From Oxalobacteraceae bacterium (lineage in GTDB: Bacteria > Pseudomonadota > Gammaproteobacteria > Burkholderiales > Burkholderiaceae_D): a stretch of DNA of 64,000 bases. The position numbers and the translations under genes are program-made. The notes below the pieces were generated by a model that saw nothing but the letters and a program-made list of their open reading frames with translations, was not told the origin of the DNA and searched no databases. The stretch spans positions 278 to 64,277 of the forward strand of contig JAHFQV010000007.1 in NCBI GenBank assembly GCA_023259175.1. Direction: 5' to 3'. Position 1 is the stretch's first letter. Each line of letters starts with the position of its first letter. Of this stretch, positions 19,989 to 32,214 are shown piece after piece.

Positions 19989-21476
19989 TTATGCTCGTAA
20001 GAGCGCAAGGACACCTTGTGGTAAAGCGTTTGCTTGCGCCAAAATCGCTGTACCGGCTTGTTGTAAGACTTGTCCGCGAGTCAATGCTGCTGTTTCTGTA
20101 GCGAAGTCTGCATCACGGATACGGCTGCGCGAGGCGGTTAAATTTTCTGCACCGGTTTGCAAACTGATCACCGCTGATGAGAATCGGTTTTGATATGAAC
20201 CGAGATTCGCGCGTGAGGTATTGATTGTTTGCAGCGCCGCATCCAAGGTCGTGATCGCCGCCAGCGCACCAGCTGAGGTGCTTAAACTAAGTGAGGAGAC
20301 ACCTGCACCGACCGTCGTTGTCGCAGAGGTATAAGCACCCGTCAAGTTAGCTGCCGTCAAGCCAGTACCCGTACCATTGGCCAATGTGACACCGGCTGAA
20401 CTGGTTGAACTCAGCGTAAGCGTCGAGGTTGAGATGGTGGTGGTACCCGTCGCGGCTGTACCGATACCCGTTACAGCAGCACCCGCAGCAGTGTTGGTTG
20501 ATAAAGTAACGGTGACGTTACGACCATCGGCAGCACTCAAAGCCACCGCGCCAGTGGAGGTGCTAAATGTTGCCGTAACACCGGTTTGAGAGCTAATTGC
20601 ATTGACGGCGGCGGCCACTTGCGCACCGCGTTGTGCACCGGATGTTGATGCAGCCAATGCACCGAGATTGACACCGTTAATTGTGACATCACCTGAGGCA
20701 ATCGCGGTACCTGCGGTGGAGGCCGTACCGGTCACGGCAGTGGTGCCGACTGTGGCTGTTACACCGGAATTGCCACTGATAGCGTTGATGGCATTGGCTT
20801 TTGCGATACCGCTACCGGTTGAGTTTGAGAAGGACACGCCGTCAGCAGCTGAGGCACCAGTTTGATAGCCATTGATCGACAAATCACCGGCCGCTAAAGC
20901 GGTGGTAGTGACTGCGCCTGCGCCAGCGACCGTTGTAGAATAACTGGAGCCTGAACCTACACCCAAGGCTGCTGAGCGTGCGCTCGAGATGGAGGTGATG
21001 TTGATCGAATCGTTTGCCGTATTGTTGGCGCCGACTTGAAAGGCTTGTGAATTGAATGTGCCGTCGAGCAAATTGACACCGTTAAAGTTAGTGCTATTGG
21101 CAACACGGTCAATTTCAGCAATTAACTGGGTTGATTCTGTGTTGAGCGCTGCGCGGTCAGTTGCACTATTACTCGCATTCGAGGATTGCACAGCTAGGTC
21201 GCGGATACGTTGTAAGTTACTGGTGATTTGGCCCAATGCGCCCTCAGCGGTTTGCACCAGCGAGATACCATCATTAGCATTACGTACAGCTTGATTTAAG
21301 CCGCCGATTTGGGAGCTTAAACGTTCGGAGATCGCTAAACCAGCAGCATCATCTTTCGCACTATTGATGCGCAGACCTGAAGACAAACGTTGTAACGAAA
21401 GGTTCAGTTGGTTTTGCGATGTTGTTAAATTGCGCTGCGCATTAAGCGAGGCAATATTGGTGTTGATGACAGCCAT
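19989..21476 (-). CDS. fliC: Flagellin
   Basis: MAVINTNIASLNAQRNL, QRLSSGLRINSAKDDAAGLAIS, SRIRDADFATE, QAGTAILAQAN; TAAGGAG RBS. Confidence 0.98.
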   Translation of the reverse strand: MAVINTNIASLNAQRNLTTSQNQLNLSLQRLSSGLRINSAKDDAAGLAISERLSSQIGGLNQAVRNANDGISLVQTAEGALGQITSNLQRIRDLAVQSSNASNSATDRAALNTESTQLIAEIDRVANSTNFNGVNLLDGTFNSQAFQVGANNTANDSINITSISSARSAALGVGSGSSYSTTVAGAGAVTTTALAAGDLSINGYQTGASAADGVSFSNSTGSGIAKANAINAISGNSGVTATVGTTAVTGTASTAGTAIASGDVTINGVNLGALAASTSGAQRGAQVAAAVNAISSQTGVTATFSTSTGAVALSAADGRNVTVTLSTNTAAGAAVTGIGTAATGTTTISTSTLTLSSTSSAGVTLANGTGTGLTAANLTGAYTSATTTVGAGVSSLSLSTSAGALAAITTLDAALQTINTSRANLGSYQNRFSSAVISLQTGAENLTASRSRIRDADFATETAALTRGQVLQQAGTAILAQANALPQGVLALLRA

Positions 21477-21559
21477 GATAGGACTCCTTACTTAGATTTT
21501 CAGTGGGGCGATGTGCCTTAAACGTTGGCCTGTTTAATGCCGGACCGCCGTTGAATCAG

Positions 21560-21586
21560 GTAACGGACCACTCCTTAAAAAATTGA
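21560..21586 (-). promoter_or_regulatory. Candidate proximal sigma-28 promoter for fliC
   Basis: Minus strand TCAATTTT-N11-TCCGTTAC; correct spacing but degenerate boxes. Confidence 0.4.
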
Positions 21587-21643
21587 GAAAATCCTCGCAA
21601 ATAAATCTTGTTTTTTACTCTCAAGTTTTAATGCTCTTTCCGT

Positions 21644-21670
21644 TTTACGGCAAATTAAAAAAAAACTTAA
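21644..21670 (-). promoter_or_regulatory. Candidate distal sigma-28 promoter for fliC
   Basis: Minus strand TTAAGTTT-N11-GCCGTAAA; 7/8 and 6/8 match to consensus. Confidence 0.65.
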
Positions 21671-21866
21671 GGGGTGATTTAAGGAATAAATGCACTTCTT
21701 TTCGTCTTATGCGCTAGGCGTTTTTCCAATAACATGGAAATAAGTCCCCACAGCCTCTGAGTTTAGCGCGCTAAGCCTGTTGCGCTCTCGCCCATTTTAA
21801 TTGTGCTGCCTATCGGGAAGTGGTAAAACGTGAGTAGCGCGAACTTGCAAATGCAATGAGAGGCTA

Positions 21867-24074
21867 GTGATGGGTAAATCCAGTTTCAATTCAAGAGCTG
21901 CTTTACAAGACGCTAAGCGTTTGCATACTGCTGGGAATATGGAGGATGCTAAGGCGGTATGCTCACGCATCTTGCAACACTATCCTTTACATCAAGAGGC
22001 CTTGTATTTCTTGGCACGCTTATGCGCCGATATGGGCTTTTGGGATGAGGCTTTGCTTTATATACAAAAAGCTTTTTTGGTGAACTCAACAATGCCCGGT
22101 GAAAGATCGGGCTATTTTGCGATCCTGAATCACTACCTCGCTGATAAGCAATATCCCAAATTAGAACAAGCAAGCCGATGGTTGACCAGCCATCTTTCTA
22201 AGGATGGCATCGCTTGGGATTATTTAACGGTGAGCTTGTTGGAGCAGGGGCGCTACTTTGACGCGCTTGAGGCTGCACAAAAGGCAGTGAAGTTTTTGCC
22301 GACCAATGTCCATATTCAAAATAATTTAGCCTATGCGCTGATCGGCTTAGAGCGCTGCACGGAAGCGGCCGCTATTTTGCGAGTTGTTGTCCAGACTGAA
22401 CCGACGATGGCTTCGGCGCACAATAATTTAGGCAATGCTTTACGTTATAACGGCGACTACGAGGGGGCAATGAAGTGCTTTGAAGCGGCGATCGCGATTG
22501 CGCCTGAAACCGCCTATTTTTACAATAATCTAGGGCTCACTTACCGCTCTTTAGATCGCTATCAATCCTCGATAGATAGTTACCAAAAGGCTTTGCAAAT
22601 TCAGCCTGATTTGGTACAGGTGTATCCGAATTTGATTGATGTTTACCGGCAAGCAGGCATGGTACAACAAGCGATAGAATGTGGACAACATGCGCTAACG
22701 CTGACGCAAGAGTTGGCCGAAATTTGGGGCGCATTTGGCGATGCCTTGCGGGATGCTGGACAACTCGATGCCGCGATTGAATCGTATGTGAAGGCGGTGA
22801 GTTTTAAAACGGACAGTGAGTCTAGTTTTAATCGAAAAATATATACGAATATTTTGTTTTGCCTGAACTACCACCCCGACCTTGATGCCGAAACGATCTT
22901 TAGCGCATATCGTGAATTTGATCAGCGATTTGCACTGTCTCTGAAAAAGCATTGGCGGCCATTTAACACACCACGCGACACACAAAAGAAGCTGAAGGTG
23001 GGCTACCTTAGTCAGTCATTTTACAATCAGGTCTGCAAATTTTTCCTAATACCTTTGCTGGAAAAGCATGATCGTAGTCAGTTTGAGATTTACGCTTACG
23101 CCCAAATTCCTTACGAAGACGAAACGACCGCGCACTACAAGACCTTGGTTGACCATTGGGTTCCTATCCGCGAATTGATGGACGATCAAGTTGCTGAACG
23201 AATTCGTGCCGATGAAATTGATATTTTGGTGGACGTTTCGGGGCACACCAATTCCAATCGTTTGCTGGTGTTCGCGCAAAAACCAGCGCCAGTTTCTTTG
23301 CACTGGTTGGAATATGGCTACACCACCGGTTTAAGTGCAATCGATTATTTCATGACAGATCGGGCCAGTGTGACTGACGATTGTGGACATTTGTTTTCCG
23401 AGCAGATATGGATACTCGATAGTCCCGCCTATGTTTATCGTCCCGATACGCGACTCGCCATTCTCAACGACTCACCCGCTGTACGAAATGGCTATGTGAC
23501 TTTTGGCAGCTTGTCGCGTACTACCCGCATTAATCATCGAGTGGTACGTATTTGGGCCGCGATCCTTGATGCGGTGCCAGACTCGCATTTGATTATCAAT
23601 AGCGGCGATTTTAAAGACCCCAGAGTGCAAGACGAGATGGCTGCGCGGTTTATGCAATACGGCATTGCACGCTCTCGGCTAGAAATTAGTTTTAGCTCGC
23701 CCTCGTGGGAGGTGCTTAAACATGTCGATATTGGTCTCGATTGTTTCCCGCACAATTCGGGCACGACTTTATTGGAGACCCTTTTTATGGGGATCCCATT
23801 TGTAACGCTATTAGGTCGACCATCAGTGGGACGCATCGGTGCCAGCGTTTTGAGCGGTATGGGACGCACAGAATGGATAGCCAGTTCTGAAGAAGAATAT
23901 GCGCAAAAAGCCGTGATTTTGGCGCACGATTTAGAGGGCTTGCAGCACATGCGCCAATTCATGCGCGCTGAAATGCAAGCCTCTGCATTGATGGATGAAC
24001 CCGCTTTTGCACAGGCTGTGGAGCGGGCGTATCGGCAGATGTGGACACGCTATTGTGAAAGGAATGGGGCATGA
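21867..24074 (+). CDS. TPR + GT41 (OGT/SPINDLY-like) protein glycosyltransferase; putative flagellin glycosyltransferase
   Basis: Multiple TPRs ([27 protein letters not shown]), then [55 protein letters not shown]; divergent from fliC. Confidence 0.88.
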
Positions 24075-24841
24075 AAGCGGTGATCTTGGCGGGCGGCTTG
24101 GGAACGCGTATTTCTGAAGAAACGCATTTAAAACCCAAACCCATGATCGACATCGGAGGTCATCCGATTTTGTGGCACATCATGAAAAGTTATTCGGCGC
24201 ATGGCGTCAATGATTTCGTCATTTGTTGCGGCTATAAAGGCTATGTCATCAAAGAATATTTTGCGAATTATTTTTTGCATATGTCCGATGTGACTTTTGA
24301 TATGAGTAATAACCACATTGAGGTGCATGAACACCATGCGGAAGACTGGCGGGTGACCTTGGTGGATACCGGCGATGACACCATGACAGGGGGGCGTTTG
24401 CGTCGTGTCGCCGGCTATTTACAAGATGAGGACGCTTTTTGTTTTACCTATGGTGATGGTTTGTCGGATGTGGATATTCGTGCGCAGATTGCCTTTCATC
24501 GCGCCCACGGAAAATTGGCGACCGTGACCGCGGTGCTGCCACCGGGACGCTATGGTGCGCTCGATCGTGACGGTGATAGTGTCAAAGGATTTACCGAAAA
24601 GCCGCGCGGTGACGGTGGTTGGATTAACGGTGGCTTCTTTATTTTGTCACCGAAAGTGCTTGACCTCATTGCGGGCGATGCGACCAGTTGGGAAGCTGAG
24701 CCGCTGACCCAACTGGCGCGAAAAAACGAGTTGATGGCTTTTGAACATGCTGGTTTTTGGCAAGCGATGGATACACTACGTGAAAAAAATCTGCTAGAAG
24801 AACTTTGGCAAAGTGGGAGAGCGCCTTGGAAGCGTTGGTAG
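24071..24841 (+). CDS. rfbF: Glucose-1-phosphate cytidylyltransferase
   Basis: [47 protein letters not shown]. Confidence 0.96.
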
Positions 24842-25959
24842 AGCGTTTAAGCGCGAATCCCGATCCCGCTTTTTGGCGCGGTCGGCGGGTGGCCGTGACT
24901 GGGCATACGGGCTTTAAAGGCGCAATCCTAGTGCACTTCTTGTTACGTCTCGGTGCCAAGGTATCGGCCTTTTCTTTGGCACCTCATACCACACCAAATT
25001 TATTCGATGAGCTGGCATTACATCATCGTTGCGCGAGTCAAATCGGCGATCTGCGTGAGTTTGAGACGCTTAATAACTGGCTGCTCGAGTCTCAGCCTGA
25101 AGTTGTTTTTCACCTGGCGGCGCAAGCTTTGGTGCGGGAAAGTTATCGCCAGCCCGCTGCAACCATGAGCAGTAATTTTGTCGGGACATTACATTTGTTG
25201 GAAGCCTTGCGCCAGCAAAGTAGTGTCAAAGCCGTGGTCTGCGTGACGACCGATAAAGTTTATCGTCAAAGTGAAATTGCCCATGCATTTAGCGAAAATG
25301 ATGCCCTAGGTGGACACGATCCCTATAGCGCCAGTAAAGCCGCTTGTGAGATTTTGATTGAGTCCTATCGCTTAAGTTTCCTGCAGCATGCCAGTATCGC
25401 GACCGCGCGTGCGGGGAATGTGATTGGTGGCGGAGATTGGTCGGCTGAAAGGCTCTTGCCTGATGCAGTACGCGCTTGGCAGCTCGACGATGTGCTGGAA
25501 ATTCGTTCGCCAGATGCGATTCGTCCGTGGCAGCATGTGCTAGAGGCCTTGACTGCCTATTTGATTTTGGCTGAAAAATTATTTGCTTCGGAATGTGAGA
25601 GCCGTGCCTACAATTTTGGCCCCGATGCGCGAGATGCAGTCAGTGTGCGGCGAGTTTTGGACTTGGCGCGACAATATTTTGGTCGAGGTGAAATCGTAGA
25701 GCATTCTGATTTAGCGAGTTTCCATGAAGCGCAAGTGTTAATGCTCAATACCGATTTGGCGAGAACGCAATTGGGTATTGCGCCAAGGTGGACTTTAGAA
25801 ACGGCGGTTGCGCGCAGCATGCTCTGGTATCGTCAGTTTGCGCGGGGTGTTTCTGCAGCGCGTTTGTGTGATGAGGATATCGCAGCTTTTTTGTCGGATA
25901 CGCAAATCCATGAGCATGAGCAAGCCGGCATGCAAGCCAATGAGGTGCGCGATGGATAA
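24805..25959 (+). CDS. rfbG: CDP-glucose 4,6-dehydratase (start uncertain)
   Basis: [66 protein letters not shown]. Confidence 0.95.
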
Positions 25960-26515
25960 ATCCCTGCTCAGTAAGCCCACGTTTATCCGAGGTGTGGAAT
26001 TGCTTTGCCGCGTACAAAGACAGGATGAGCGCGGCTATTTTGAACGTCTGTATTCCAGCAGTATTTTGCAAACTTGTGGCTGGCAAGGAGGTATTGAACA
26101 AGTCAATCACAGCGTCACACTTGGCCTAGGCATTGTGCGCGGCATGCACTACCAAAAACCACCCTATGCCGAATACAAATTGGTCTCTTGTTTGCGGGGT
26201 GTGGCCTGGGATGTGGTGGTGGATTTGCGTGCTGACTCAGCTAGTTTTCTGCAAACGTTTGCGGTTGAACTTTCTGCAAAAAATGCGCAAGCCATTTTGA
26301 TACCGCCTGGTTGCGCACATGGATTTCAAGCCCTGAGTGCTGAGCTGGAATTGCTGTATTGCCATAGCGCGTCTTATCAAGCTCAATTTGAAGCAGGGGT
26401 GAATGCACTTGATCCACAATTGCATATCGCTTGGCCGCTGCCGATTGCGCAACGCTCGCCGCGTGATACCGACTTTGCGATGATCGCCGATGACTTTAAA
26501 GGAGTGTGGCTGTGA
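25952..26515 (+). CDS. NDP-4-keto-6-deoxyhexose 3,5-epimerase (RmlC/RfbC family)
   Basis: DERGYFERLY, QVNHS, VRGMHYQ, KLVSCLRG, DVVVDLR, IPPGCAHGFQAL. Confidence 0.9.
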   Translation: MDKSLLSKPTFIRGVELLCRVQRQDERGYFERLYSSSILQTCGWQGGIEQVNHSVTLGLGIVRGMHYQKPPYAEYKLVSCLRGVAWDVVVDLRADSASFLQTFAVELSAKNAQAILIPPGCAHGFQALSAELELLYCHSASYQAQFEAGVNALDPQLHIAWPLPIAQRSPRDTDFAMIADDFKGVWL

Positions 26516-27741
26516 AATGTCGACACTGCGCACAAGCTTTGCAATATTGCTGCCTCGATTTGGGCTGCGCTCCGCCATCCAATGCGTATTTAACGCCGGC
26601 GCAATTGCATGCGCCAGAATTGCATTTCCCCTTACGTTTATATGTGTGTGATGTTTGTTTTTTGGTGCAAACGGAAGACTTTGCCCAGCGTGAATTTTTG
26701 TTCGATCAGGACTACGCTTATTTCAGCTCGTTTTCTAGCAGTTGGTTAGCGCATGCGCATCGTTATGTGACGCAAATGCAGCAGCGTTTTGCATTGTCAG
26801 AAGAAAGCTATGTGTTGGAAATCGCCGCCAATGACGGCTACCTACTGCAATATGTCCAAGCGCTAGGAATCCCTTGTTGTGGGATAGAGCCGACCGCCAG
26901 CACTGCCGCCAGTGCGCGGGCAAAGGGGCTGCGTATTGTGGAAGGTTTTTGGGGGGAGGTCTTAGCAAATACCCTGCTCGAAGAAGGGCGACAAGCCGAT
27001 TTAATCGTCGCCAATAATGTGCTGGCGCATGTCCCCGACATCAATGACTTTGTGCGCGGCTGTGCCTCTTTTTTGAAGCCTGATGGGGTCGCAACTTTTG
27101 AATTTCCACATCTGCTTAATATGCTGCAATTGAATCAGTTTGACACTGCTTACCACGAACATTTTTCTTATTTTTCTTTGACCGCAGTCAAGCGTATTTT
27201 TGAAGCGAATGGTTTGACTATTTTTGATGTCGAGCATTTGCCAACTCACGGCGGTAGTTTGCGGGTATTTGCGCAGCGCTCGCAAAAGCCGCAAACACTT
27301 TGGCATAGCGAGCAAGTCGAAGCTTGTTTGACGCGTGAACGAGAGGCGGGTGTCGATCGCCTCAGTTTTTATGAACACTTTCAGCGTACCGCAGAAGCCG
27401 CTAAGAACGCATTGCTGAGCTATTTAATTGAGTGTCATTCACAAGGCTTACGGGTGGCGGCATACGGGGCTGCGGCGAAAGGAAATACGCTCCTGAATTT
27501 TGCTGGCATACGCAGCGATTTGTTGGCCTATGTGGTGGATAAAAATCCGTCCAAGCAAAACAAATTTTTACCTGGAAGCCGACTGCCAATTGTCGATATG
27601 GCGCATTTGATCGAAGATAGACCTGATCGAATTTTGATTTTGCCTTGGAATCTGGAACAAGAAATTAAACAGGAATTGATGCAGGTAATTACTTGGCCGG
27701 TACAGTTATTGACCGCCGTTCCGACCTTGACGCGTGTGTAG
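26512..27741 (+). CDS. SAM-dependent NDP-hexose 3-C-methyltransferase
   Basis: Zn ribbon CRHC...CDVCFLVQ, EIAANDGYLL, NNVLAHVPD, YHEHFSYFS, C-terminal AAYGAAAKGNTLLNF; AAAGGAG RBS before GTG 26512. Confidence 0.88.
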   Translation: MKCRHCAQALQYCCLDLGCAPPSNAYLTPAQLHAPELHFPLRLYVCDVCFLVQTEDFAQREFLFDQDYAYFSSFSSSWLAHAHRYVTQMQQRFALSEESYVLEIAANDGYLLQYVQALGIPCCGIEPTASTAASARAKGLRIVEGFWGEVLANTLLEEGRQADLIVANNVLAHVPDINDFVRGCASFLKPDGVATFEFPHLLNMLQLNQFDTAYHEHFSYFSLTAVKRIFEANGLTIFDVEHLPTHGGSLRVFAQRSQKPQTLWHSEQVEACLTREREAGVDRLSFYEHFQRTAEAAKNALLSYLIECHSQGLRVAAYGAAAKGNTLLNFAGIRSDLLAYVVDKNPSKQNKFLPGSRLPIVDMAHLIEDRPDRILILPWNLEQEIKQELMQVITWPVQLLTAVPTLTRV

Positions 27742-27756
27742 ATAGAGGGGGTTAGT

Positions 27757-28245
27757 ATGATAGAAATTCATCCGGATGCAAAAATTTCGCGTTGGGCGGA
27801 TATCGAGGACTCGGTGCGTGGTTCGCGGATTGTGGTCGGTGCTGGGTCTAGCATTGATAGCTTCGTTAAAGTCAAACCAGCCGGTGGCAGCGGTGATTTA
27901 ATCATTGGCGATCGCACTGTGATTAATTCTGGCTGTGTGTTTTATACGGGGAATGGCATTCATATTGGCAATGACGTGGCGATTGCAGCCAATTGTTGTT
28001 TTGCACCCGTCAATCATGCCTATGCCGATAAAAATACGCGTATCAATCAGCAGGGGTTTCTGCCCAGCCGAGGCGGTATCATCATCGAAGACGATGTTTG
28101 GATTGCGGCGAATTGCGTGATACTGGATGGTGCGATTTTGCGACGTGGTTGTGTGGTGGGCGCGGGCTCTCTGGTGCGCAGAGAGTTGGAAGCTTATTCG
28201 ATTCATGTTGGTAATCCTTTGCGCTTAATCGGGTGGCGAAAATGA
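27757..28245 (+). CDS. Hexapeptide-repeat (left-handed beta helix) acyltransferase
   Basis: LIIGDRTVINSGC, IHIGNDVAIAANC, IIIEDDVWIAANCVILDG, VVGAGSLV, VGNP. Confidence 0.88.
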   Translation: MIEIHPDAKISRWADIEDSVRGSRIVVGAGSSIDSFVKVKPAGGSGDLIIGDRTVINSGCVFYTGNGIHIGNDVAIAANCCFAPVNHAYADKNTRINQQGFLPSRGGIIIEDDVWIAANCVILDGAILRRGCVVGAGSLVRRELEAYSIHVGNPLRLIGWRK

Positions 28246-29066
28246 ATACTTCAGTGCAAGCGACGATTGTCGGTGGACGTGGATTTATCGGGCGACATTT
28301 GGCGCATGCGCTACGTGTCCAAGGTTGGCAGGTGGATGTGGCAAAACGCCAGGATGCAAAACTCTTTGCCCAAGAACTCGGACATGTTTTCTATTGTGCG
28401 GGTTTGACCGCCGATTTTCGGCAAAACCCATATGCGACCGTGGATGCACACGTCACCATGTTAGCTAATTTATTGGAGTATTCGAGCTTTACCAGCCTCA
28501 GTTATTTATCGAGCACACGGGTGTATGCGGAGGCGAGTAGTACCGAGGAGAGCGCTGCATTGCGCACCCGCCCTGAGGTGCCAGATCATTTGTATAATTT
28601 ATCCAAACTGATGGGGGAGAGTTTGTGCTTGCAAAGTGGTCGTGATGTGCGCATCGTGCGACTGTCCAATGTGTATGGTCGTGGTATGCCGCAACAGAAT
28701 TTTTTGCAAGCCGTTTTGAGCGAAGCCTACGCACAAAAAAGTGTGCGCTTTTTAAGTGCCGCTAGCTCGAGTAAAGACTATATTTCGATTGAGGACGTAG
28801 TCCGCGCTATTCCGCACATCGCTTTAAATGGACGCAAGGATATTTATAATTTGGCGCAAGGGACCAATACCAGTCACCAAGAAATTGCTGATTGGTTGAG
28901 TGCGCAAGGTATCGTTTGCAGTTTTGCGCAGGATGCACCGGTAACCTGTTTTCCCGTGATTGATATGCGTAAAACCAGCAGCCTGTGCGGTGCTGCACAG
29001 TCGAATTTATTGCAGGATTTAGCGCCACTTTTTCAGGCGATCAATAATTTAGATGAGGCTCTATGA
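28242..29066 (+). CDS. NAD(P)-dependent sugar epimerase/reductase (extended SDR); probable 4-ketoreductase
   Basis: GGRGFIG Rossmann motif, YLSSTRVY, YNLSK (YxxxK), RLSNVYG. Confidence 0.82.
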   Translation: MNTSVQATIVGGRGFIGRHLAHALRVQGWQVDVAKRQDAKLFAQELGHVFYCAGLTADFRQNPYATVDAHVTMLANLLEYSSFTSLSYLSSTRVYAEASSTEESAALRTRPEVPDHLYNLSKLMGESLCLQSGRDVRIVRLSNVYGRGMPQQNFLQAVLSEAYAQKSVRFLSAASSSKDYISIEDVVRAIPHIALNGRKDIYNLAQGTNTSHQEIADWLSAQGIVCSFAQDAPVTCFPVIDMRKTSSLCGAAQSNLLQDLAPLFQAINNLDEAL

Positions 29067-29812
29067 ATCCCATAGCACAATTTGAAGCCGAGCGCGAAGA
29101 ACGTATTGCGCAACTGGGTCAAGACACCGCATTTCAGGCGCAATCCCGTTCATGGTTAGAACAGAGTATGCGTAAGCAATATGTGTATAATTTTTCGTGG
29201 CTGGGACGACCGATTATTCAAAATCCGATCGATATGGTCGCGATGCAGGAATTGATTTGGCGTGTGCAACCGGATTTGATTATCGAAACAGGCATTGCGC
29301 ATGGTGGATCGATTATTTTTTCTGCATCCATGCTGGAACTCAATGCTGCATGCGGAGGTAATCCCGAGGCGCAAGTGATCGGTATCGATATCGATATTCG
29401 GGAACATAATCGACTCGCTATTTTGACGCATCCTATGGCCAAACGCATACGTATGGTGCAAGGTTCGAGCGTGGCGCCTGAAGTAGTGGCGCAAGTGCAG
29501 GAAGCTGCGCAAGGGCGGAGCAGGATCATGGTGTTTTTAGACTCTAATCATACCCACGAACATGTACTGGCCGAGCTAAATGCCTACGCGCCTTTGGTGA
29601 GTGTGGGCAGTTATTGCGTGGTCTTCGATACCTTTGTCGAGGATGTGCCTGCGGACGTTTTTGAACAGCGCCCTTGGGCTCCCGGTAATAGCCCTAAGAC
29701 GGCGGTGCATGCTTATCTCGAGGCGAATCGGCAATTTGAAATCGATCAGAGCATGCATCATAAACTGCAAATTACGGTGGCACCGGATGGGTTTTTGCGG
29801 CGTATTTTTTAG
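29063..29812 (+). CDS. CmcI/cephalosporin-hydroxylase family protein, probable sugar O-methyltransferase
   Basis: YNFSWLGRPIIQ, QPDLIIETGIAHGGS, FLDSNHTHEHVLAEL, SVGSYCVVFDT. Confidence 0.85.
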   Translation: MNPIAQFEAEREERIAQLGQDTAFQAQSRSWLEQSMRKQYVYNFSWLGRPIIQNPIDMVAMQELIWRVQPDLIIETGIAHGGSIIFSASMLELNAACGGNPEAQVIGIDIDIREHNRLAILTHPMAKRIRMVQGSSVAPEVVAQVQEAAQGRSRIMVFLDSNHTHEHVLAELNAYAPLVSVGSYCVVFDTFVEDVPADVFEQRPWAPGNSPKTAVHAYLEANRQFEIDQSMHHKLQITVAPDGFLRRIF

Positions 29813-29813
29813 T

Positions 29814-29868
29814 GTTTTAGGAGCGAGTTTTAGGGCGCCAGCTTTAGGGTGTCAGCTTTAGGGTGCCA
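29814..29868. repeat. Four tandem degenerate 13-14 bp repeats, consensus GYTTTAGGGYGYCA
   Basis: gttttaggagcga / gttttagggcgcca / gctttagggtgtca / gctttagggtgcca fill the gap between convergent stop codons. Confidence 0.85.
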
Positions 29869-29871
29869 TGC

Positions 29872-31527
29872 TTACGGAGCTATCACGACACGATTTTTGC
29901 CACTGCGCTTGGCTTCGTACATGGCTTGATCTGCGCGTTTGATTAAGGTATTTTGATCTTCTTTTGCACCACGTAAGGCGATACCCGCACTAAAGGTGAT
30001 GAAGATGCGTTTATCGTCCACAGTAAAGAAATGCGTCGTGAGTTCGCGTTGGACGCGAGTCATGGCGCGTGCGGCTTCTTCTAAAGTTGTTTCTGGCATG
30101 AGTATGATAAATTCTTCTCCACCATAGCGGGCGATGACATCAATTGAGCGCAAGGTTTGTTTGACGATGCGCACGACATGAATCAGTGCTTCGTCGCCAG
30201 AAGCGTGGCCGTGGGTGTCGTTGAGTTTTTTAAAATTATCGAGATCAAGCATGGCGATGCACAGTGGCGAATTGCGCCGATCCGAACGATCCGCTTCACG
30301 TTCAAAAATTTCATCTAAGCCGCGCCGATTAAGACTGCCCGTGAGCTGATCTTCGCGCACCAGTTCGCTCATTTCTTCTAGTTTCGCTTCTAATTCTTTA
30401 ATCCGTGTTTCAGCTTCTTTCACTTCCTTTTGCGCCGCCAGCATGATTTGATGCGAGCGCATCGTTTCACTATGAATAGTTTGTGTTTCGTTCAAAATGG
30501 CGAGAATGATTTTCTCCACGGCCAAGGCATCGCGGGTCTCGCGAATCTGTTGGGAAAATTCGTCGATTTTGAATTGATAGGCACTCGTCGTATTGGCCAT
30601 GACATCGAGTCTATCGATGAAGGTCGCCATCATATTTTTGACGGAACTGCGCGAATCATCCAGACTCGATTTGAGTGTACCCTGTTTGTAGATCACATCT
30701 TTGAGGCTGCGCGTGGCCTCCTGCAATAGGCGATGGTCAATCGGACCGGCAATTAAATTTTGAATGACGATAATTTGACCACGCAACCAATTGTCTTCTT
30801 CGAGAAGATCATGCACATTGTTTAGCAGCAGTGAAAATAGTCGTAGCAAAAGCTCTTGCTGTTCGGCGGTGTCGCCACCGACCAGTTCGATTTGAAAACA
30901 GAGTTGTTTAACCCGCGAGGCGACTTGTTTAAACTCGGGTTCGCTCACGGCGAATTTAAGTTTGTCTGCAATCGCTTCTGACTCTGTCGCAAGTGTCGGT
31001 TTTTCTTTCAGTAAGGACGATAAAGCCATGCCCAGTGTGCGAAAAAGTGCGTCCTTCAGATGCGTTTCTTTGCTATGGCTAGGATCGAAATCATCGACTA
31101 AAGAAACCCGCGTAGCGCTAGTTGCATTGGCCGGTGGCGGGTCGACTAAGCTGATGCTATTGGATAAATTTGGGTTGACTTTGTTGAGCGTTTTGTCGGC
31201 GAGCTCGCGCAAAACTTTTGCGTATTCTTCCCAATTTTTACTCGATAAGGATCGTTGCAATCGGTGTCCAAAATTGATTAAATCGCCGCTGGATTTTTGT
31301 AAGTGATTTGCGAACGTAGTAAGCAAATTTTCTGCTTCTGACGGCGTTGGTATTTCGGGTTGGGTGTTCTTGATTTCAGACGCGTCGGGGATGCCTGCGA
31401 TTTCGTTATACGCTTTTTGATAAGCCTCTGGTGTTGGGGCAATCCGCTCAATCGCCAAGCGCTTAAAAGTATCGCGCGCAATATCGGTGGGACTCTTGGT
31501 CGAAGGGGGTAGACGTTTGTCCGACAT
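29872..31527 (-). CDS. Cytoplasmic diguanylate cyclase (long helical N-terminus + GGDEF)
   Basis: DQLTGSLNRRG, LDLDNFKKLNDTHGHASGD, RSID (I-site RxxD), RYGGEEF, AMYEAKRSGKNRV. Confidence 0.93.
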   Translation of the reverse strand: MSDKRLPPSTKSPTDIARDTFKRLAIERIAPTPEAYQKAYNEIAGIPDASEIKNTQPEIPTPSEAENLLTTFANHLQKSSGDLINFGHRLQRSLSSKNWEEYAKVLRELADKTLNKVNPNLSNSISLVDPPPANATSATRVSLVDDFDPSHSKETHLKDALFRTLGMALSSLLKEKPTLATESEAIADKLKFAVSEPEFKQVASRVKQLCFQIELVGGDTAEQQELLLRLFSLLLNNVHDLLEEDNWLRGQIIVIQNLIAGPIDHRLLQEATRSLKDVIYKQGTLKSSLDDSRSSVKNMMATFIDRLDVMANTTSAYQFKIDEFSQQIRETRDALAVEKIILAILNETQTIHSETMRSHQIMLAAQKEVKEAETRIKELEAKLEEMSELVREDQLTGSLNRRGLDEIFEREADRSDRRNSPLCIAMLDLDNFKKLNDTHGHASGDEALIHVVRIVKQTLRSIDVIARYGGEEFIILMPETTLEEAARAMTRVQRELTTHFFTVDDKRIFITFSAGIALRGAKEDQNTLIKRADQAMYEAKRSGKNRVVIAP

Positions 31528-31566
31528 GGCGCTCTTTCAGCAAATTGGCAAACTTAGAATCGCAAA

Positions 31567-32214
31567 TTATTCTACCAGTTCGTTACGGATAGCATAGTGG
31601 GTTAACTCGGCATTGTGGCGTAATTTCATCTTGATGAGAATGCGAGAACGGTATTCGCTAATAGTTTTTGCAGACAAGGAAAGTTCTTTGGCTATATCAC
31701 TAACACTCTTGCCAGAGGCGATCATAATCATGGTTTGATATTCACGGTCTGACAGTGCTTTGTGCGGTTCTTCCTCATTTCCTCGATGCAGATTGTTCGC
31801 CATTTCCTGGGTCACTTCAGGGCTGATAAATTTTAAGCCCGAAGCCACTTGTTGTAGGGCTTGCAGTAGATCGGTTGCGCTACAGTGTTTGTTGAGAAAA
31901 CCCGATGCGCCAGCGCGTAGGCTGCGTATCGCATAGATGTCTTCGCGATGCGTAGAAAAAACGAGGATGTTCAAATGCGGGAATTCGCGTTTAAACTGTT
32001 TGAGAACATCAATGCCGTTTCTATCATTGGTCTCGATCTCGATTAGCATGAGATTCGCTGGCGTGTGTCGCGCAAGCTTGAGCGCATCTTGGCCGTGGCT
32101 GGCTTCACCGACGATGCTGATATGCTCGTGACGACTGAGCACTTGCTGTATCCCGATACGCATGATAGGTTGAGGATCAACAATGAGTAATTTGATGTGC
32201 GCGTCTTGACTCAT
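31567..32214 (-). CDS. NarL/UvrY-family response regulator with atypical receiver (phospho-acceptor Asp replaced by Glu)
   Basis: REC plus LuxR HTH (LSDREYQ...IAKELSLSAKTI); NLMLIEIET where the family has DVVLLDISM. Confidence 0.9.
   Translation of the reverse strand: MSQDAHIKLLIVDPQPIMRIGIQQVLSRHEHISIVGEASHGQDALKLARHTPANLMLIEIETNDRNGIDVLKQFKREFPHLNILVFSTHREDIYAIRSLRAGASGFLNKHCSATDLLQALQQVASGLKFISPEVTQEMANNLHRGNEEEPHKALSDREYQTMIMIASGKSVSDIAKELSLSAKTISEYRSRILIKMKLRHNAELTHYAIRNELVE

Follow-up and report, generated by a model that had tools for sequence, protein, structure and literature searches.

A TPR-GT41 glycosyltransferase operon with CDP-sugar genes beside fliC: a probable flagellin glycosylation island

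The window, the whole 64,000-nucleotide stretch of DNA that was analysed, originates from an Undibacterium-like freshwater bacterium and carries a glycosyltransferase gene of the GT41 family next to the flagellin gene fliC, together with genes for the synthesis of a CDP-activated sugar. To our knowledge, all characterised GT41 enzymes take UDP- or GDP-sugars, and use of a CDP-sugar is not known for any of them. The operon is probably an accessory island for cytoplasmic O-glycosylation of flagellin, in which the GT41 would transfer a rare methyl-branched, vinelose-like sugar from a CDP carrier to flagellin.

Organization of the operon and the predicted sugar

The first-pass annotation described eight co-oriented genes divergent from fliC. 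All eight open reading frames exist, translationally coupled, on the + strand at positions 21870–29812, and the locus contains the following features:

19989..21476, − strand: fliC, flagellin of 495 residues (PF00669/PF00700), single copy in a genome-wide tblastn search; presumed acceptor.
21644..21670, − strand: candidate sigma-28-like fliC promoter TTAAGTTT-N11-GCCGTAAA, assigned purely by consensus match (13 of 16 positions).
21870..24074, + strand: SPINDLY-like TPR-GT41 glycosyltransferase of 734 residues, about nine TPRs and a GT-B domain (PF13844, 137 bits, cut-off 25).
24071..24841, + strand: rfbF, glucose-1-phosphate cytidylyltransferase producing CDP-D-glucose (TIGR02623 equivalog, 466 bits, cut-off 300).
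24805..25959, + strand: rfbG, CDP-glucose 4,6-dehydratase (TIGR02622 equivalog, 427 bits, cut-off 278).
25952..26515, + strand: RmlC-like cupin epimerase of NDP-4-keto-6-deoxyhexose (PF00908, 164 bits; PDB relatives RmlC and NovW, E 1e-27).
26512..27741, + strand: sugar 3-C-methyltransferase with Zn-ribbon, SAM Rossmann and C-terminal domains (PF08421, PF13489, PF08484).
27757..28245, + strand: hexapeptide (left-handed beta-helix) O-acetyltransferase (PF00132; WcaF/WbbJ-like NCBIfam matches under cut-off).
28242..29066, + strand: short SDR, presumed from context to be an NDP-4-ketohexose 4-reductase (PF01370; weak RmlD matches; distant PDB relatives only).
29063..29812, + strand: CmcI/rhamnosyl O-methyltransferase family protein, presumed sugar O-methyltransferase (PF04989, 317 bits).
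29872..32214, − strand: GGDEF cyclase and NarL-like regulator, the far border of the variable slot, outside the glycosylation pathway.

The overlapping stop and start codons noted earlier were all seen on reading the sequence: ATGA at 24071 (GT41/rfbF), 28242 (acetyltransferase/reductase) and 29063 (reductase/O-methyltransferase), and GTGA at 26512 (epimerase/C-methyltransferase), the last with AGGAG 7 nt upstream. Furthermore, rfbG and the epimerase gene overlap by 8 nt (ATGGATAA at 25952), and rfbF and rfbG by 37 nt if TTG 24805 is the start of rfbG, which is supported because orthologues align from residues 1–5. The long-ORF start of the epimerase at 25808 was replaced by 25952. The GT41 had been assigned the start GTG 21867; ATG 21870 is most likely the correct one, giving the 734-residue length of an identical database protein. 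Consensus scanning placed the candidate fliC promoter in the divergent intergenic region and identified no convincing promoter for the operon.

The annotation of the TPR-GT41 as the sole glycosyltransferase stands: there is no second one in the operon or in the checked flanking genes, which are flaG-fliD-fliS-fliT-fliK-ycgR-fliF upstream and GGDEF, NarL-like, SpoT and housekeeping genes downstream. Genes for Wzx, Wzy, Wzm, Wzt, a ligase, NeuA, NeuB and an aminotransferase are absent from the operon and from the genes checked on both sides. According to a whole-genome search, rfbF, rfbG, GT41 and fliC are each present in a single copy. The genome also contains dTDP-rhamnose-type genes on contig C30.

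RfbF and RfbG pass the cut-offs of equivalog-level profiles for both enzymes of the CDP-hexose pathway. These enzymes classically supply O-antigen dideoxyhexoses. Genes for E1/E3 3-deoxygenation (RfbH/RfbI, DdhC/DdhD), of the PLP/PMP-dependent DegT type or encoding an iron-sulfur reductase, are absent from the operon; therefore, the product is expected to retain its 3-oxygen and to be C-methylated instead. The C-methyltransferase has full-length homologues of known structure (E 4e-67 to 1e-60), KijD1 (5t64, 4e-67), MtmC (4rv9) and TcaB9 (3ndi), all matching over residues 2–387, and shares their three-domain zinc-ribbon architecture, with CRHC and CDVC as the CxxC...CxxC motif read from the translation. 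The solved enzymes act on dTDP-sugars in antibiotic pathways, whereas the context in the window is CDP-linked. The CmcI-like O-methyltransferase has no PDB relative at 1e-5.

In the proposed pathway, RfbF and RfbG would produce CDP-4-keto-6-deoxy-D-glucose, which would be methylated at C3 by the TcaB9/KijD1-type enzyme, inverted at C5 (and/or C3) by the RmlC-like epimerase, and reduced at the 4-keto group by the SDR. O-methylation by the CmcI-like enzyme and O-acetylation by the hexapeptide enzyme would yield a CDP-linked O-acetylated 6-deoxy-3-C-methyl-O-methyl-hexose, which is vinelose-like. The TPR superhelix of the SPINDLY-like TPR-GT41 would hold flagellin, and the enzyme would move the sugar from CDP to serines and threonines of the flagellin central domain in the cytoplasm, before export. 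By composition, serine and threonine make up 34% of this domain (residues 171–405). Presumably, the donor is in the CDP form at transfer and flagellin is the acceptor. We infer the identity and stereochemistry of the sugar, the order of tailoring, and whether methyl and acetyl groups are added before or after transfer.

Conservation and exchange of the cassette

GT41 enzymes are referred to here as class I if they have the donor-site signature described below and as class II if they are of the SPY/OGT type. A class I GT41 gene adjoins fliC in 12 of 19 genomes of the genus, with rfbF, rfbG, the epimerase and the C-methyltransferase genes alongside. The arrangement is kept, with each gene in its place, in 11 genus genomes other than that of the window; therefore, it is not due to chance. 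The gene rfbF is confined to the same 12 of the 19 genomes, always adjoining GT41, and is missing from all seven others; two genus genomes have a second copy elsewhere. The order of NarL-GGDEF, slot and fliC holds for occupied and empty loci alike: three genus genomes have nothing in the slot, and two have a different cassette there, comprising another GT41, DegT and WbqC. The locus has the characteristics of a flagellin island, namely glycosyltransferase and sugar genes at fliC in a strain-variable slot that holds this cassette, another cassette, or none. Two genomes, G010 and G007, have sister fliD sequences (branch length 0.03), yet the branch of G010 is 0.9 for GT41 and 0.58 for the C-methyltransferase, and their tailoring genes differ. 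The GT41 and sugar genes were swapped together between sister species with near-identical fliD.

The co-occurrence of fliC, GT41 and rfbFG, suggested previously as a check on the function of the operon, was surveyed at GT41 loci of Beta- and Gammaproteobacteria, Desulfobacterota and Campylobacterota, with a neighbourhood of 10 kb, and bears out the association. At 41 of 71 class I loci rfbF lies within 10 kb, together with fliC at 28 of the 41, and it occurs at none of the 15 loci carrying only class II GT41s. About 40% of class I loci have no rfbF inside 10 kb. Among 18 further genomes with a class I GT41, 14 contain rfbF elsewhere in the genome; the four from which it is wholly missing are all MAGs or single-cell assemblies. 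When 151 evenly sampled genomes of the order were examined, the class I motif turned up in only one further genome, which has the arrangement GT41-AcT-SDR-OMT-rfbF-rfbG-CMT on one contig.

The donor of the GT41 might be a conventional one (UDP-GlcNAc, GDP-fucose or a dTDP-sugar produced elsewhere), and a glycosyltransferase encoded at another locus might deliver the CDP-sugar to LPS, capsule or a different glycan, in which case the gene neighbourhood would merely reflect that both are accessory surface-variation genes. The donors of characterised GT41s and the classical role of RfbF and RfbG agree with this explanation, as do the second rfbF copies in two genus genomes and the dTDP-rhamnose-type genes of contig C30. 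We nevertheless consider it unlikely: rfbF occurs in the genus only alongside GT41 and always adjoining it, with no other copy in the genome of the window; the adjacency of GT41 and rfbF persists over phyla and through rearrangements of gene order; GT41 and the sugar genes have been exchanged as one unit; and polysaccharide assembly and export genes are absent in and near the operon.

It is very unlikely that the GT41 and the CDP-sugar modify another surface or regulatory protein and that the adjacency to fliC is incidental. Such an acceptor would be in line with the 13 of 41 class I loci with rfbF that have no fliC inside 10 kb, and with additional class I GT41s located away from flagellar genes in some genomes (L042, L043, L072, L086). 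However, the island occupies one fixed fliC-adjacent slot in all genus genomes that have it, and adjacency to fliC recurs in Achromobacter, Pseudomonas, Pseudorhodoferax, Rhodoferax, Nitrosomonas, Desulfopila and Azotobacter. In addition, three TPR-GT41 genes of Burkholderia territorii, from the B. cepacia complex, adjoin fliT and flagellin, which we take to be the expected place of BCAL0111/flmQ. Transfer to flagellin remains the preferred reading.

Architecture and donor site of the GT41

Both halves of the PF13844 profile also match the GT41 in the genome search, and its closest relative in the PDB is Arabidopsis SPY (SPINDLY; E 1e-101), a protein O-fucosyltransferase of the GT41 family. 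The AlphaFold model, with a pLDDT of 88.9, contains 18 paired helices (residues 9–313) followed by lobes of alternating strands and helices; its best Foldseek matches are SPY (TM 0.70–0.73), T. terrenum OGT, human OGT and XcOGT. The enzyme is predicted to have the architecture of the GT41 family, an N-terminal TPR superhelix and a two-lobe GT-B catalytic domain. Like SPINDLY (PDB 7Y4I, 8DTF–8DTI), it lacks the intervening domain of OGT, and the asparagine ladder of the TPRs is partly kept, with N187, N220/N221 and N255 aligned to SPY N300, N333/N334 and N368. SPY likewise moves a 6-deoxy-L-hexose to serine or threonine; by contrast, its donor is GDP-fucose and its substrates are plant proteins of the nucleus and cytosol.

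The class I donor-site signature, S550-R551-x-x-R554, S613-W614 and F627-P-H-N-S-G-T-T634 in the window GT41, falls at the GDP-fucose-binding residues N661, K665, H728, Y744 and T747–749 of SPY; across the subclass the motif opens with S/T-R-x. The SPY residues N661/N662/K665 correspond to S550/R551/R554, H728 to S613-W614, Y744-A-G-T-T-T to H629-N-S-G-T-T, and H495 to Q388. Judged by these alignments, GT41s that adjoin rfbF are a distinct subclass, set apart by the residues at the nucleotide-sugar positions of SPINDLY.

The essential diphosphate-binding lysine (OGT K842, SPY K665) is absent from the window GT41, where Arg554 is the aligned residue. The replacement of lysine by arginine is conservative and keeps the charge. 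Because Arg554 and a second arginine, Arg551, are invariant throughout the class I subfamily, the change suggests a different kind of diphosphate clamp and not decay. The active-site histidine (OGT H558, SPY H495) is also absent; the window GT41 and about half of the Undibacterium orthologues have Gln388 instead, and the remainder and other class I proteins have histidine. The GT41 is under purifying selection (dN/dS 0.03–0.055), which is equally strong across the whole protein in the Gln388 forms (0.033). SPY is inactive when His495 is mutated and Lys665 is essential in it, and both positions are altered here; however, the invariance of Arg551 and Arg554, the conservation of the Gln388 forms, and the lack of an alternative transferase in the operon make it highly improbable that the GT41 is a catalytically impaired adaptor or chaperone that binds flagellin, with the sugar moved by another enzyme or never.

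The earlier reading of the locus as a self-contained flagellin glycosylation operon, with the GT41 fed by a CDP-sugar pathway, is supported by four independent comparative lines: the co-occurrence of rfbF and GT41 in the genus, their adjacency beyond it, the joint swap of GT41 and sugar genes, and the donor-site residues of the subclass.

CDP-vinelose and related flagellin glycosylation systems

The flagellin locus of Azotobacter vinelandii DJ/CA, at flaG/fliC, contains counterparts of all seven sugar genes in unchanged order (47–77% identity); the DJ/CA proteins were identified by exact match (ACO78950.1 and others). In both A. vinelandii and A. chroococcum the cassette sits between flaG and fliC. 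Its partner in Azotobacter is a class II-type TPR-GT41 fused to a GT2 domain; therefore, the cassette is not dependent on class I. A. vinelandii is the organism from which the orphan nucleotide sugar CDP-vinelose was reportedly isolated in 1967 (Okuda, Suzuki and Suzuki, J Biol Chem 1967/1968). Vinelose is reported to be 6-deoxy-3-C-methyl-2-O-methyl-L-talose, also found as its 4-O-(O-methylglycolyl) ester, and we know of no acceptor for CDP-vinelose. The enzyme set encoded in the window is what a vinelose-like sugar requires. A. vinelandii differs in having two additional enzymes, a PhyH-type dioxygenase and an O-methyltransferase of the TylF type, that could convert an acetyl ester to the O-methylglycolyl ester.

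The flagellin sugar of Burkholderia cenocepacia is reportedly a 4-acylamino-4,6-dideoxyglucose, a finding attributed to Hanuszkiewicz et al. in 2014; its synthesis reportedly depends in part on O-antigen genes and does not use a CDP pathway. The TPR-GT41s of Burkholderia differ from that of the window in their class II donor site (Lys, Y-P-G-G-T-T). Because those of B. territorii occupy the position expected for BCAL0111, GT41-type flagellin transferases have very likely already been proven, and flmQ may itself be a GT41 gene. The flmQ gene of B. cenocepacia (BCAL0111) shows linkage to the flagellin cluster, and a deletion mutant has non-glycosylated flagellin and reduced motility (PMC4462625).

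In Caulobacter FlmG, flagellin is bound by the TPR domain and receives its sugar in the cytoplasm from the C-terminal GT-B domain (PMC7591256). The window GT41 would share this modular logic; the donor of FlmG differs, being CMP-pseudaminic acid. At the level of the whole genome, a Caulobacter control matches PF13844. The bioinformatic catalogue of De Maayer and Cowan (2016) includes fliC-adjacent enterobacterial islands with SPINDLY-family GT41s and others with genes for CDP-4-keto-6-deoxyglucose; however, the CDP genes belong to Erwinia and Pantoea and the 11 GT41 types to other genera, so that the two never occur together, and most of the GT41s there have a fused methyltransferase domain (PMC4875605).

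We found no published study of the pairing of a GT41 with a CDP-sugar, and gene neighbourhoods indicate that this uncharacterised pairing is widespread. The proposal that the operon is a new system holds for the CDP donor and the GT41 subclass and not for the flagellin glycosylation island, which is of a known kind; novelty is confined to the former because GT41-type flagellin transferases with non-GlcNAc sugars are probably established. With a little less than even confidence, we suggest that class I GT41s may be the first enzymes to O-glycosylate proteins from CDP-sugars, that CDP-vinelose may be a flagellin glycan donor, and that the module may be widespread and horizontally exchanged. If so, a CDP-6-deoxy-(3-C-methyl)-hexose pathway and a GT41 would decorate flagella with methyl-branched, methylated and acylated deoxysugars, and the range of the CDP-sugar/GT41 module would span Beta- and Gammaproteobacteria, Desulfobacterota and Campylobacterota.

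The operon beside fliC

Nearest relatives of the window proteins bear Undibacterium names, and the host genome is Undibacterium-like. Its flagellin gene is divergent from an operon of eight genes, as had been noticed in the first-pass annotation; the spacer between the two measures 393 nt. Upstream of fliC lie, in order, flaG, fliD, fliS, fliT, fliK, ycgR, and fliF.

19989-21476, - strand: fliC
21870-29812, + strand: operon encoding, in order, a TPR-GT41 protein, RfbF, RfbG, an RmlC-family cupin (the epimerase), a three-domain sugar C-methyltransferase, a hexapeptide acetyltransferase, a short SDR, and a protein of the CmcI/rhamnosyl-O-methyltransferase family
within the operon, + strand: RfbF, TIGR02623, 466 bits versus a cut-off of 300
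within the operon, + strand: RfbG, TIGR02622, 427 bits versus a cut-off of 278

Direct reading of the sequence identifies every one of the gene overlaps named previously, together with an additional overlap, ATGGATAA, between rfbG and the epimerase gene. The start codon of the GT41 gene is probably ATG 21870; the resulting protein has 734 residues, as does an identical database entry. The 3' end of the operon is 60 nt from a convergent GGDEF gene. The operon, as the annotation had stated, and likewise its surroundings contain no second glycosyltransferase and no gene for a flippase, polymerase, ligase, aminotransferase, or nonulosonate synthesis. The whole draft genome contains one copy each of fliC, GT41, rfbF, and rfbG.

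The number of sigma-70 promoters and terminators detected in the operon is not above that in shuffled sequence. A sigma-28 scan identified a good fliC promoter and no convincing promoter for the operon. The motif AAAAnTTTnAG-N10-12-GCAAATAA (window 21577-21604, + strand) is kept in most Undibacterium fliC-GT41 spacers, where it is positioned 170-540 nt upstream of GT41. The motif may be a sigma-28-like promoter of the operon or may belong to the leader of fliC, which runs on the opposite strand.

The GT41 enzyme and its predicted sugar donor

The best solved relative of the window GT41 is Arabidopsis SPINDLY (SPY; E 1e-101); the two proteins align from their TPRs through the C-terminal end, and the intervening domain of OGT is absent. 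The AlphaFold model of the enzyme, calculated from an input alignment of 27 sequences, has a pLDDT of 88.9 and a pTM of 0.83. The folds most similar to the model are, best first, those of SPY (TM 0.70-0.73), Thermobaculum OGT, human OGT, and XcOGT.

Residues N661, K665, H728, Y744, and T747-749 of SPY bind GDP-fucose (PMC9715652). Subclasses of GT41 were defined by reading the SPY donor-binding positions in an alignment of 118 GT41 ORFs from scanned loci. Class I enzymes contain S/T-R-x-R where SPY has N-N-x-K, P/S-W where SPY has the base-stacking His, and F-P-H-N-S-G-T-T where SPY has F-P-Y-A-G-T-T-T; class II enzymes retain the SPY/OGT pattern of the donor site. The Arg pair of the class I donor site is invariant across the subclass and looks adaptive. 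In the window enzyme, Gln occupies the position of SPY His495 and Arg that of the essential Lys. This Gln388 (window 23028-23030), which replaces the active-site His of SPY and OGT, is common to approximately half of the Undibacterium orthologues, and the rest of the subclass retains the His. GT41 is under strong purifying selection (dN/dS of 0.03-0.055 in close pairs), which still applies to the forms with Gln388.

Over its full length, the C-methyltransferase is related to KijD1, MtmC, and TcaB9, sugar 3-C-methyltransferases of solved structure, and the nearest solved relatives of the cupin are RmlC and NovW. For the SDR and the O-methyltransferase, the solved structures include no close relative. 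RfbF and RfbG would produce CDP-4-keto-6-deoxyglucose. Since the operon lacks the E1 and E3 enzymes that build 3,6-dideoxyhexoses, this intermediate would keep its C3 oxygen and be C-methylated at C3 instead. The reading that RfbF and RfbG provide a 3,6-dideoxyhexose for O-antigen was rejected because of the missing 3-deoxygenation enzymes. The pathway is predicted to yield a CDP-linked 6-deoxy-3-C-methyl-hexose carrying O-methyl and O-acetyl groups. By calculation, this sugar would add 216.10 Da per site (146.06 for the 6-deoxyhexose, 28.03 for two CH2, and 42.01 for the acetyl), or 174.09 Da if not acetylated, to Ser or Thr of flagellin residues 171-405 approximately. Ser and Thr together constitute 34% of the central domain of the flagellin, which permits O-glycosylation but is no proof of it.

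Distribution of the GT41 and CDP-sugar genes

An orthologue of GT41 with 47-70% sequence identity is encoded in 12 of the 19 genomes of the genus, and in all 12 it adjoins fliC and is followed by rfbF, rfbG, the epimerase, and the C-methyltransferase. Cultured carriers of the island include U. danionis and U. macrobrachii (loci L051 and L052). The presence of rfbF is limited to exactly these 12 genomes; the other seven have none. The tailoring end of the operon is variable: most genomes contain the acetyltransferase, SDR, and O-methyltransferase, one lacks the O-methyltransferase, and some have a DegT aminotransferase, a GNAT, and an unknown gene as an alternative. A second copy of rfbF (69% identity), located off the flagellar locus in two genomes (G002:C37:15159-15923 and G011:C54:508001-508765), perhaps serves O-antigen.

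The slot between fliC and the GGDEF-NarL genes (window 21477-29871) occurs in the genus in three states: with a class I GT41 and the CDP-sugar cassette, with a class II cassette, or with nothing. The class II cassette, present in two genomes (loci L046 and L047), combines another GT41, of 30% identity, with genes for DegT, WbqC, and a methyltransferase. In three genomes (L142, L143, and L145) the slot is empty, and the distance from GGDEF to fliC is 440-690 bp. Filled or empty, the slot is flanked in nearly all genus genomes by the genes of a GGDEF cyclase and a NarL-like regulator (window 29872-32214, - strand). In phylogenetic trees, the fliD genes of genomes G010 and G007 are sisters with terminal branches of 0.03-0.04, whereas the G010 branches of GT41 and the C-methyltransferase have lengths of 0.9 and 0.58. 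Thus, GT41 moves with the sugar genes and not with the flagellar genes. The tailoring genes of G010 are of the amino-sugar type.

Scanning the GT41 alignment against one genome per species provided 80 named loci, the neighborhoods of which were read by tblastn with the window proteins. The arrangement GT41-rfbF-rfbG-epimerase(-C-methyltransferase)(-acetyltransferase-SDR-O-methyltransferase) was found in Achromobacter, Parapusillimonas, Pseudorhodoferax, Rhodoferax, Albidiferax, Gallionella, Nitrosomonas, and Sulfuricella, and also in Thiohalomonadaceae, Chromatium, Thiocystis, a Pseudomonas MAG, Desulfoprunum, Desulfopila, and Sulfurimonas. Outside the genus, too, the neighborhood frequently adjoins fliC. 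The P. alcaligenes, P. mendocina, and P. anguilliseptica groups commonly encode homologues of the Pseudomonas C-methyltransferase, at approximately 80% identity.

In these neighborhoods, GT41 is often present as two to four paralogues or fused into giant poly-GT41 proteins. Single ORFs of 2000-2600 residues, located directly upstream of the CDP-sugar genes, are composed of several TPR-GT41 modules arranged head to tail in Pseudorhodoferax, Albidiferax, Desulfopila, and others.

Fused multi-GT41 ORFs in the compared loci
L073, 2519-8815
L080, 9776-16099
L078, 9806-15991
L087, 4334-12013
L090, 4253-12019
L095, 4442-12004

A survey of the co-occurrence of GT41 and rfbF, which the first-pass annotation had proposed, supports their association: rfbF is located within 10 kb in 41 of 71 class I loci, as opposed to none of 15 class II-only loci. 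All the rfbF-adjoining GT41s in the 118-ORF set belong to class I. Of 18 genomes checked in which the class I locus is without rfbF, 14 encode rfbF elsewhere; the others, four in number, are either MAGs or a single-cell assembly. When 151 genomes were sampled evenly across the order, two were positive, which is too sparse for cross-tabulation; both carry the GT41-CDP-sugar module. Beyond the genome of the window, the class I motif occurs in this sample in one genome only, on a 6-kb contig with GT41, the acetyltransferase, SDR, O-methyltransferase, rfbF, rfbG, and the C-methyltransferase.

Azotobacter, CDP-vinelose, and known flagellin glycosylation systems

CDP-vinelose is CDP-6-deoxy-3-C-methyl-2-O-methyl-L-talose. 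Okuda, Suzuki, and Suzuki reportedly obtained it, together with its 4-O-(O-methylglycolyl) ester, from Azotobacter vinelandii (J Biol Chem, 1967 and 1968), and to our knowledge its acceptor has never been found. Azotobacter-like genomes were selected from 201 Pseudomonadaceae according to alternative-nitrogenase delta subunits and searched for the C-methyltransferase. Exact sequence matches identified G275 as A. vinelandii DJ/CA and G206 as A. chroococcum.

G275:C55:7001-29870 (loci L137 and L140): A. vinelandii flagellin locus, flaG to fliC

The A. vinelandii flaG-fliC interval contains rfbF, rfbG, the epimerase, C-methyltransferase, acetyltransferase, SDR, and O-methyltransferase in an order identical to that in the window, with sequence identities of 77, 50, 49, 65, 71, 47, and 60%, respectively. 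The seven genes are followed by those of a PhyH-type dioxygenase, a TylF-type O-methyltransferase, and a 1257-residue-long TPR-GT41-GT2 fusion adjoining fliC. The GT41 domain of the fusion is class II, and the Azotobacter genomes encode no other GT41. Therefore, the sugar cassette is not bound to class I enzymes, and a requirement of the class I signature for pairing with the CDP cassette is rejected. Gene content makes the A. vinelandii locus a candidate cluster for CDP-vinelose and its O-methylglycolyl ester, in which the PhyH and TylF-like enzymes could convert an acetyl ester to the O-methylglycolyl ester. Literature searches returned no paper on flagellin glycosylation in Azotobacter and no relevant paper linking vinelose or a 3-C-methyl sugar with flagellin.

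Flagellin glycosylation islands are common, and the island in the window is of this known kind. In Caulobacter, the TPR of FlmG binds flagellin and its GT-B domain transfers the sugar (PMC7591256). SPINDLY-family GT41 genes have been catalogued in flagellin glycosylation islands of Enterobacteriaceae; CDP-glucose genes occur in four Erwinia/Pantoea islands, and none of the 11 GT41 types is from those genera (PMC4875605). Enterobacterial type 23 islands were considered as a prior record of GT41 with CDP-sugar genes and rejected according to the supplementary table of that study (PMC4875605). The FlmQ family was approached through synteny in Burkholderia territorii only. Its locus L146 (1565-8490) contains three tandem TPR-GT41 genes encoding proteins of 610, 836, and 829 residues with class II donor sites, adjoining fliT, a gene for a 477-residue protein, and flagellin. 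This is presumably the position of flmQ in the B. cepacia complex. FlmQ of B. cenocepacia is needed for flagellin glycosylation (PMC4462625). Literature searches uncovered neither a GT41 associated with a CDP-sugar nor flagellin carrying a 3-C-methyl sugar.

The proposal of the first-pass annotation, that the operon glycosylates flagellin by means of a TPR-GT41 fed by a CDP-sugar pathway, is the best-supported reading, and we consider it likely to be correct; the donor, acceptor, and product are those that we infer from the genes. Two things are new: a distinct GT41 subclass that occurs widely and is tied to a CDP-6-deoxy-(3-C-methyl)-hexose pathway, and the connection of the window cassette to the candidate CDP-vinelose genes of A. 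vinelandii.

In eukaryotes, GT41 enzymes such as OGT and SPY have central regulatory roles, and they are regarded as narrow in donor range. If the reading is true, this range would be extended by a bacterial subclass that is tied to CDP-sugars and has a rebuilt nucleotide pocket, and class I enzymes would be a natural system for probing donor selection by GT41s. For flagellar biology, one transferase and seven sugar genes define a compact island, which could be transferred whole for the glyco-engineering of flagellin. The comparison with A. vinelandii offers a testable answer to the questions of what CDP-vinelose is for and which genes produce it. The same reading, if true, would explain a part of the flagellar surface variation in environmental bacteria, Achromobacter, and Pseudomonas.
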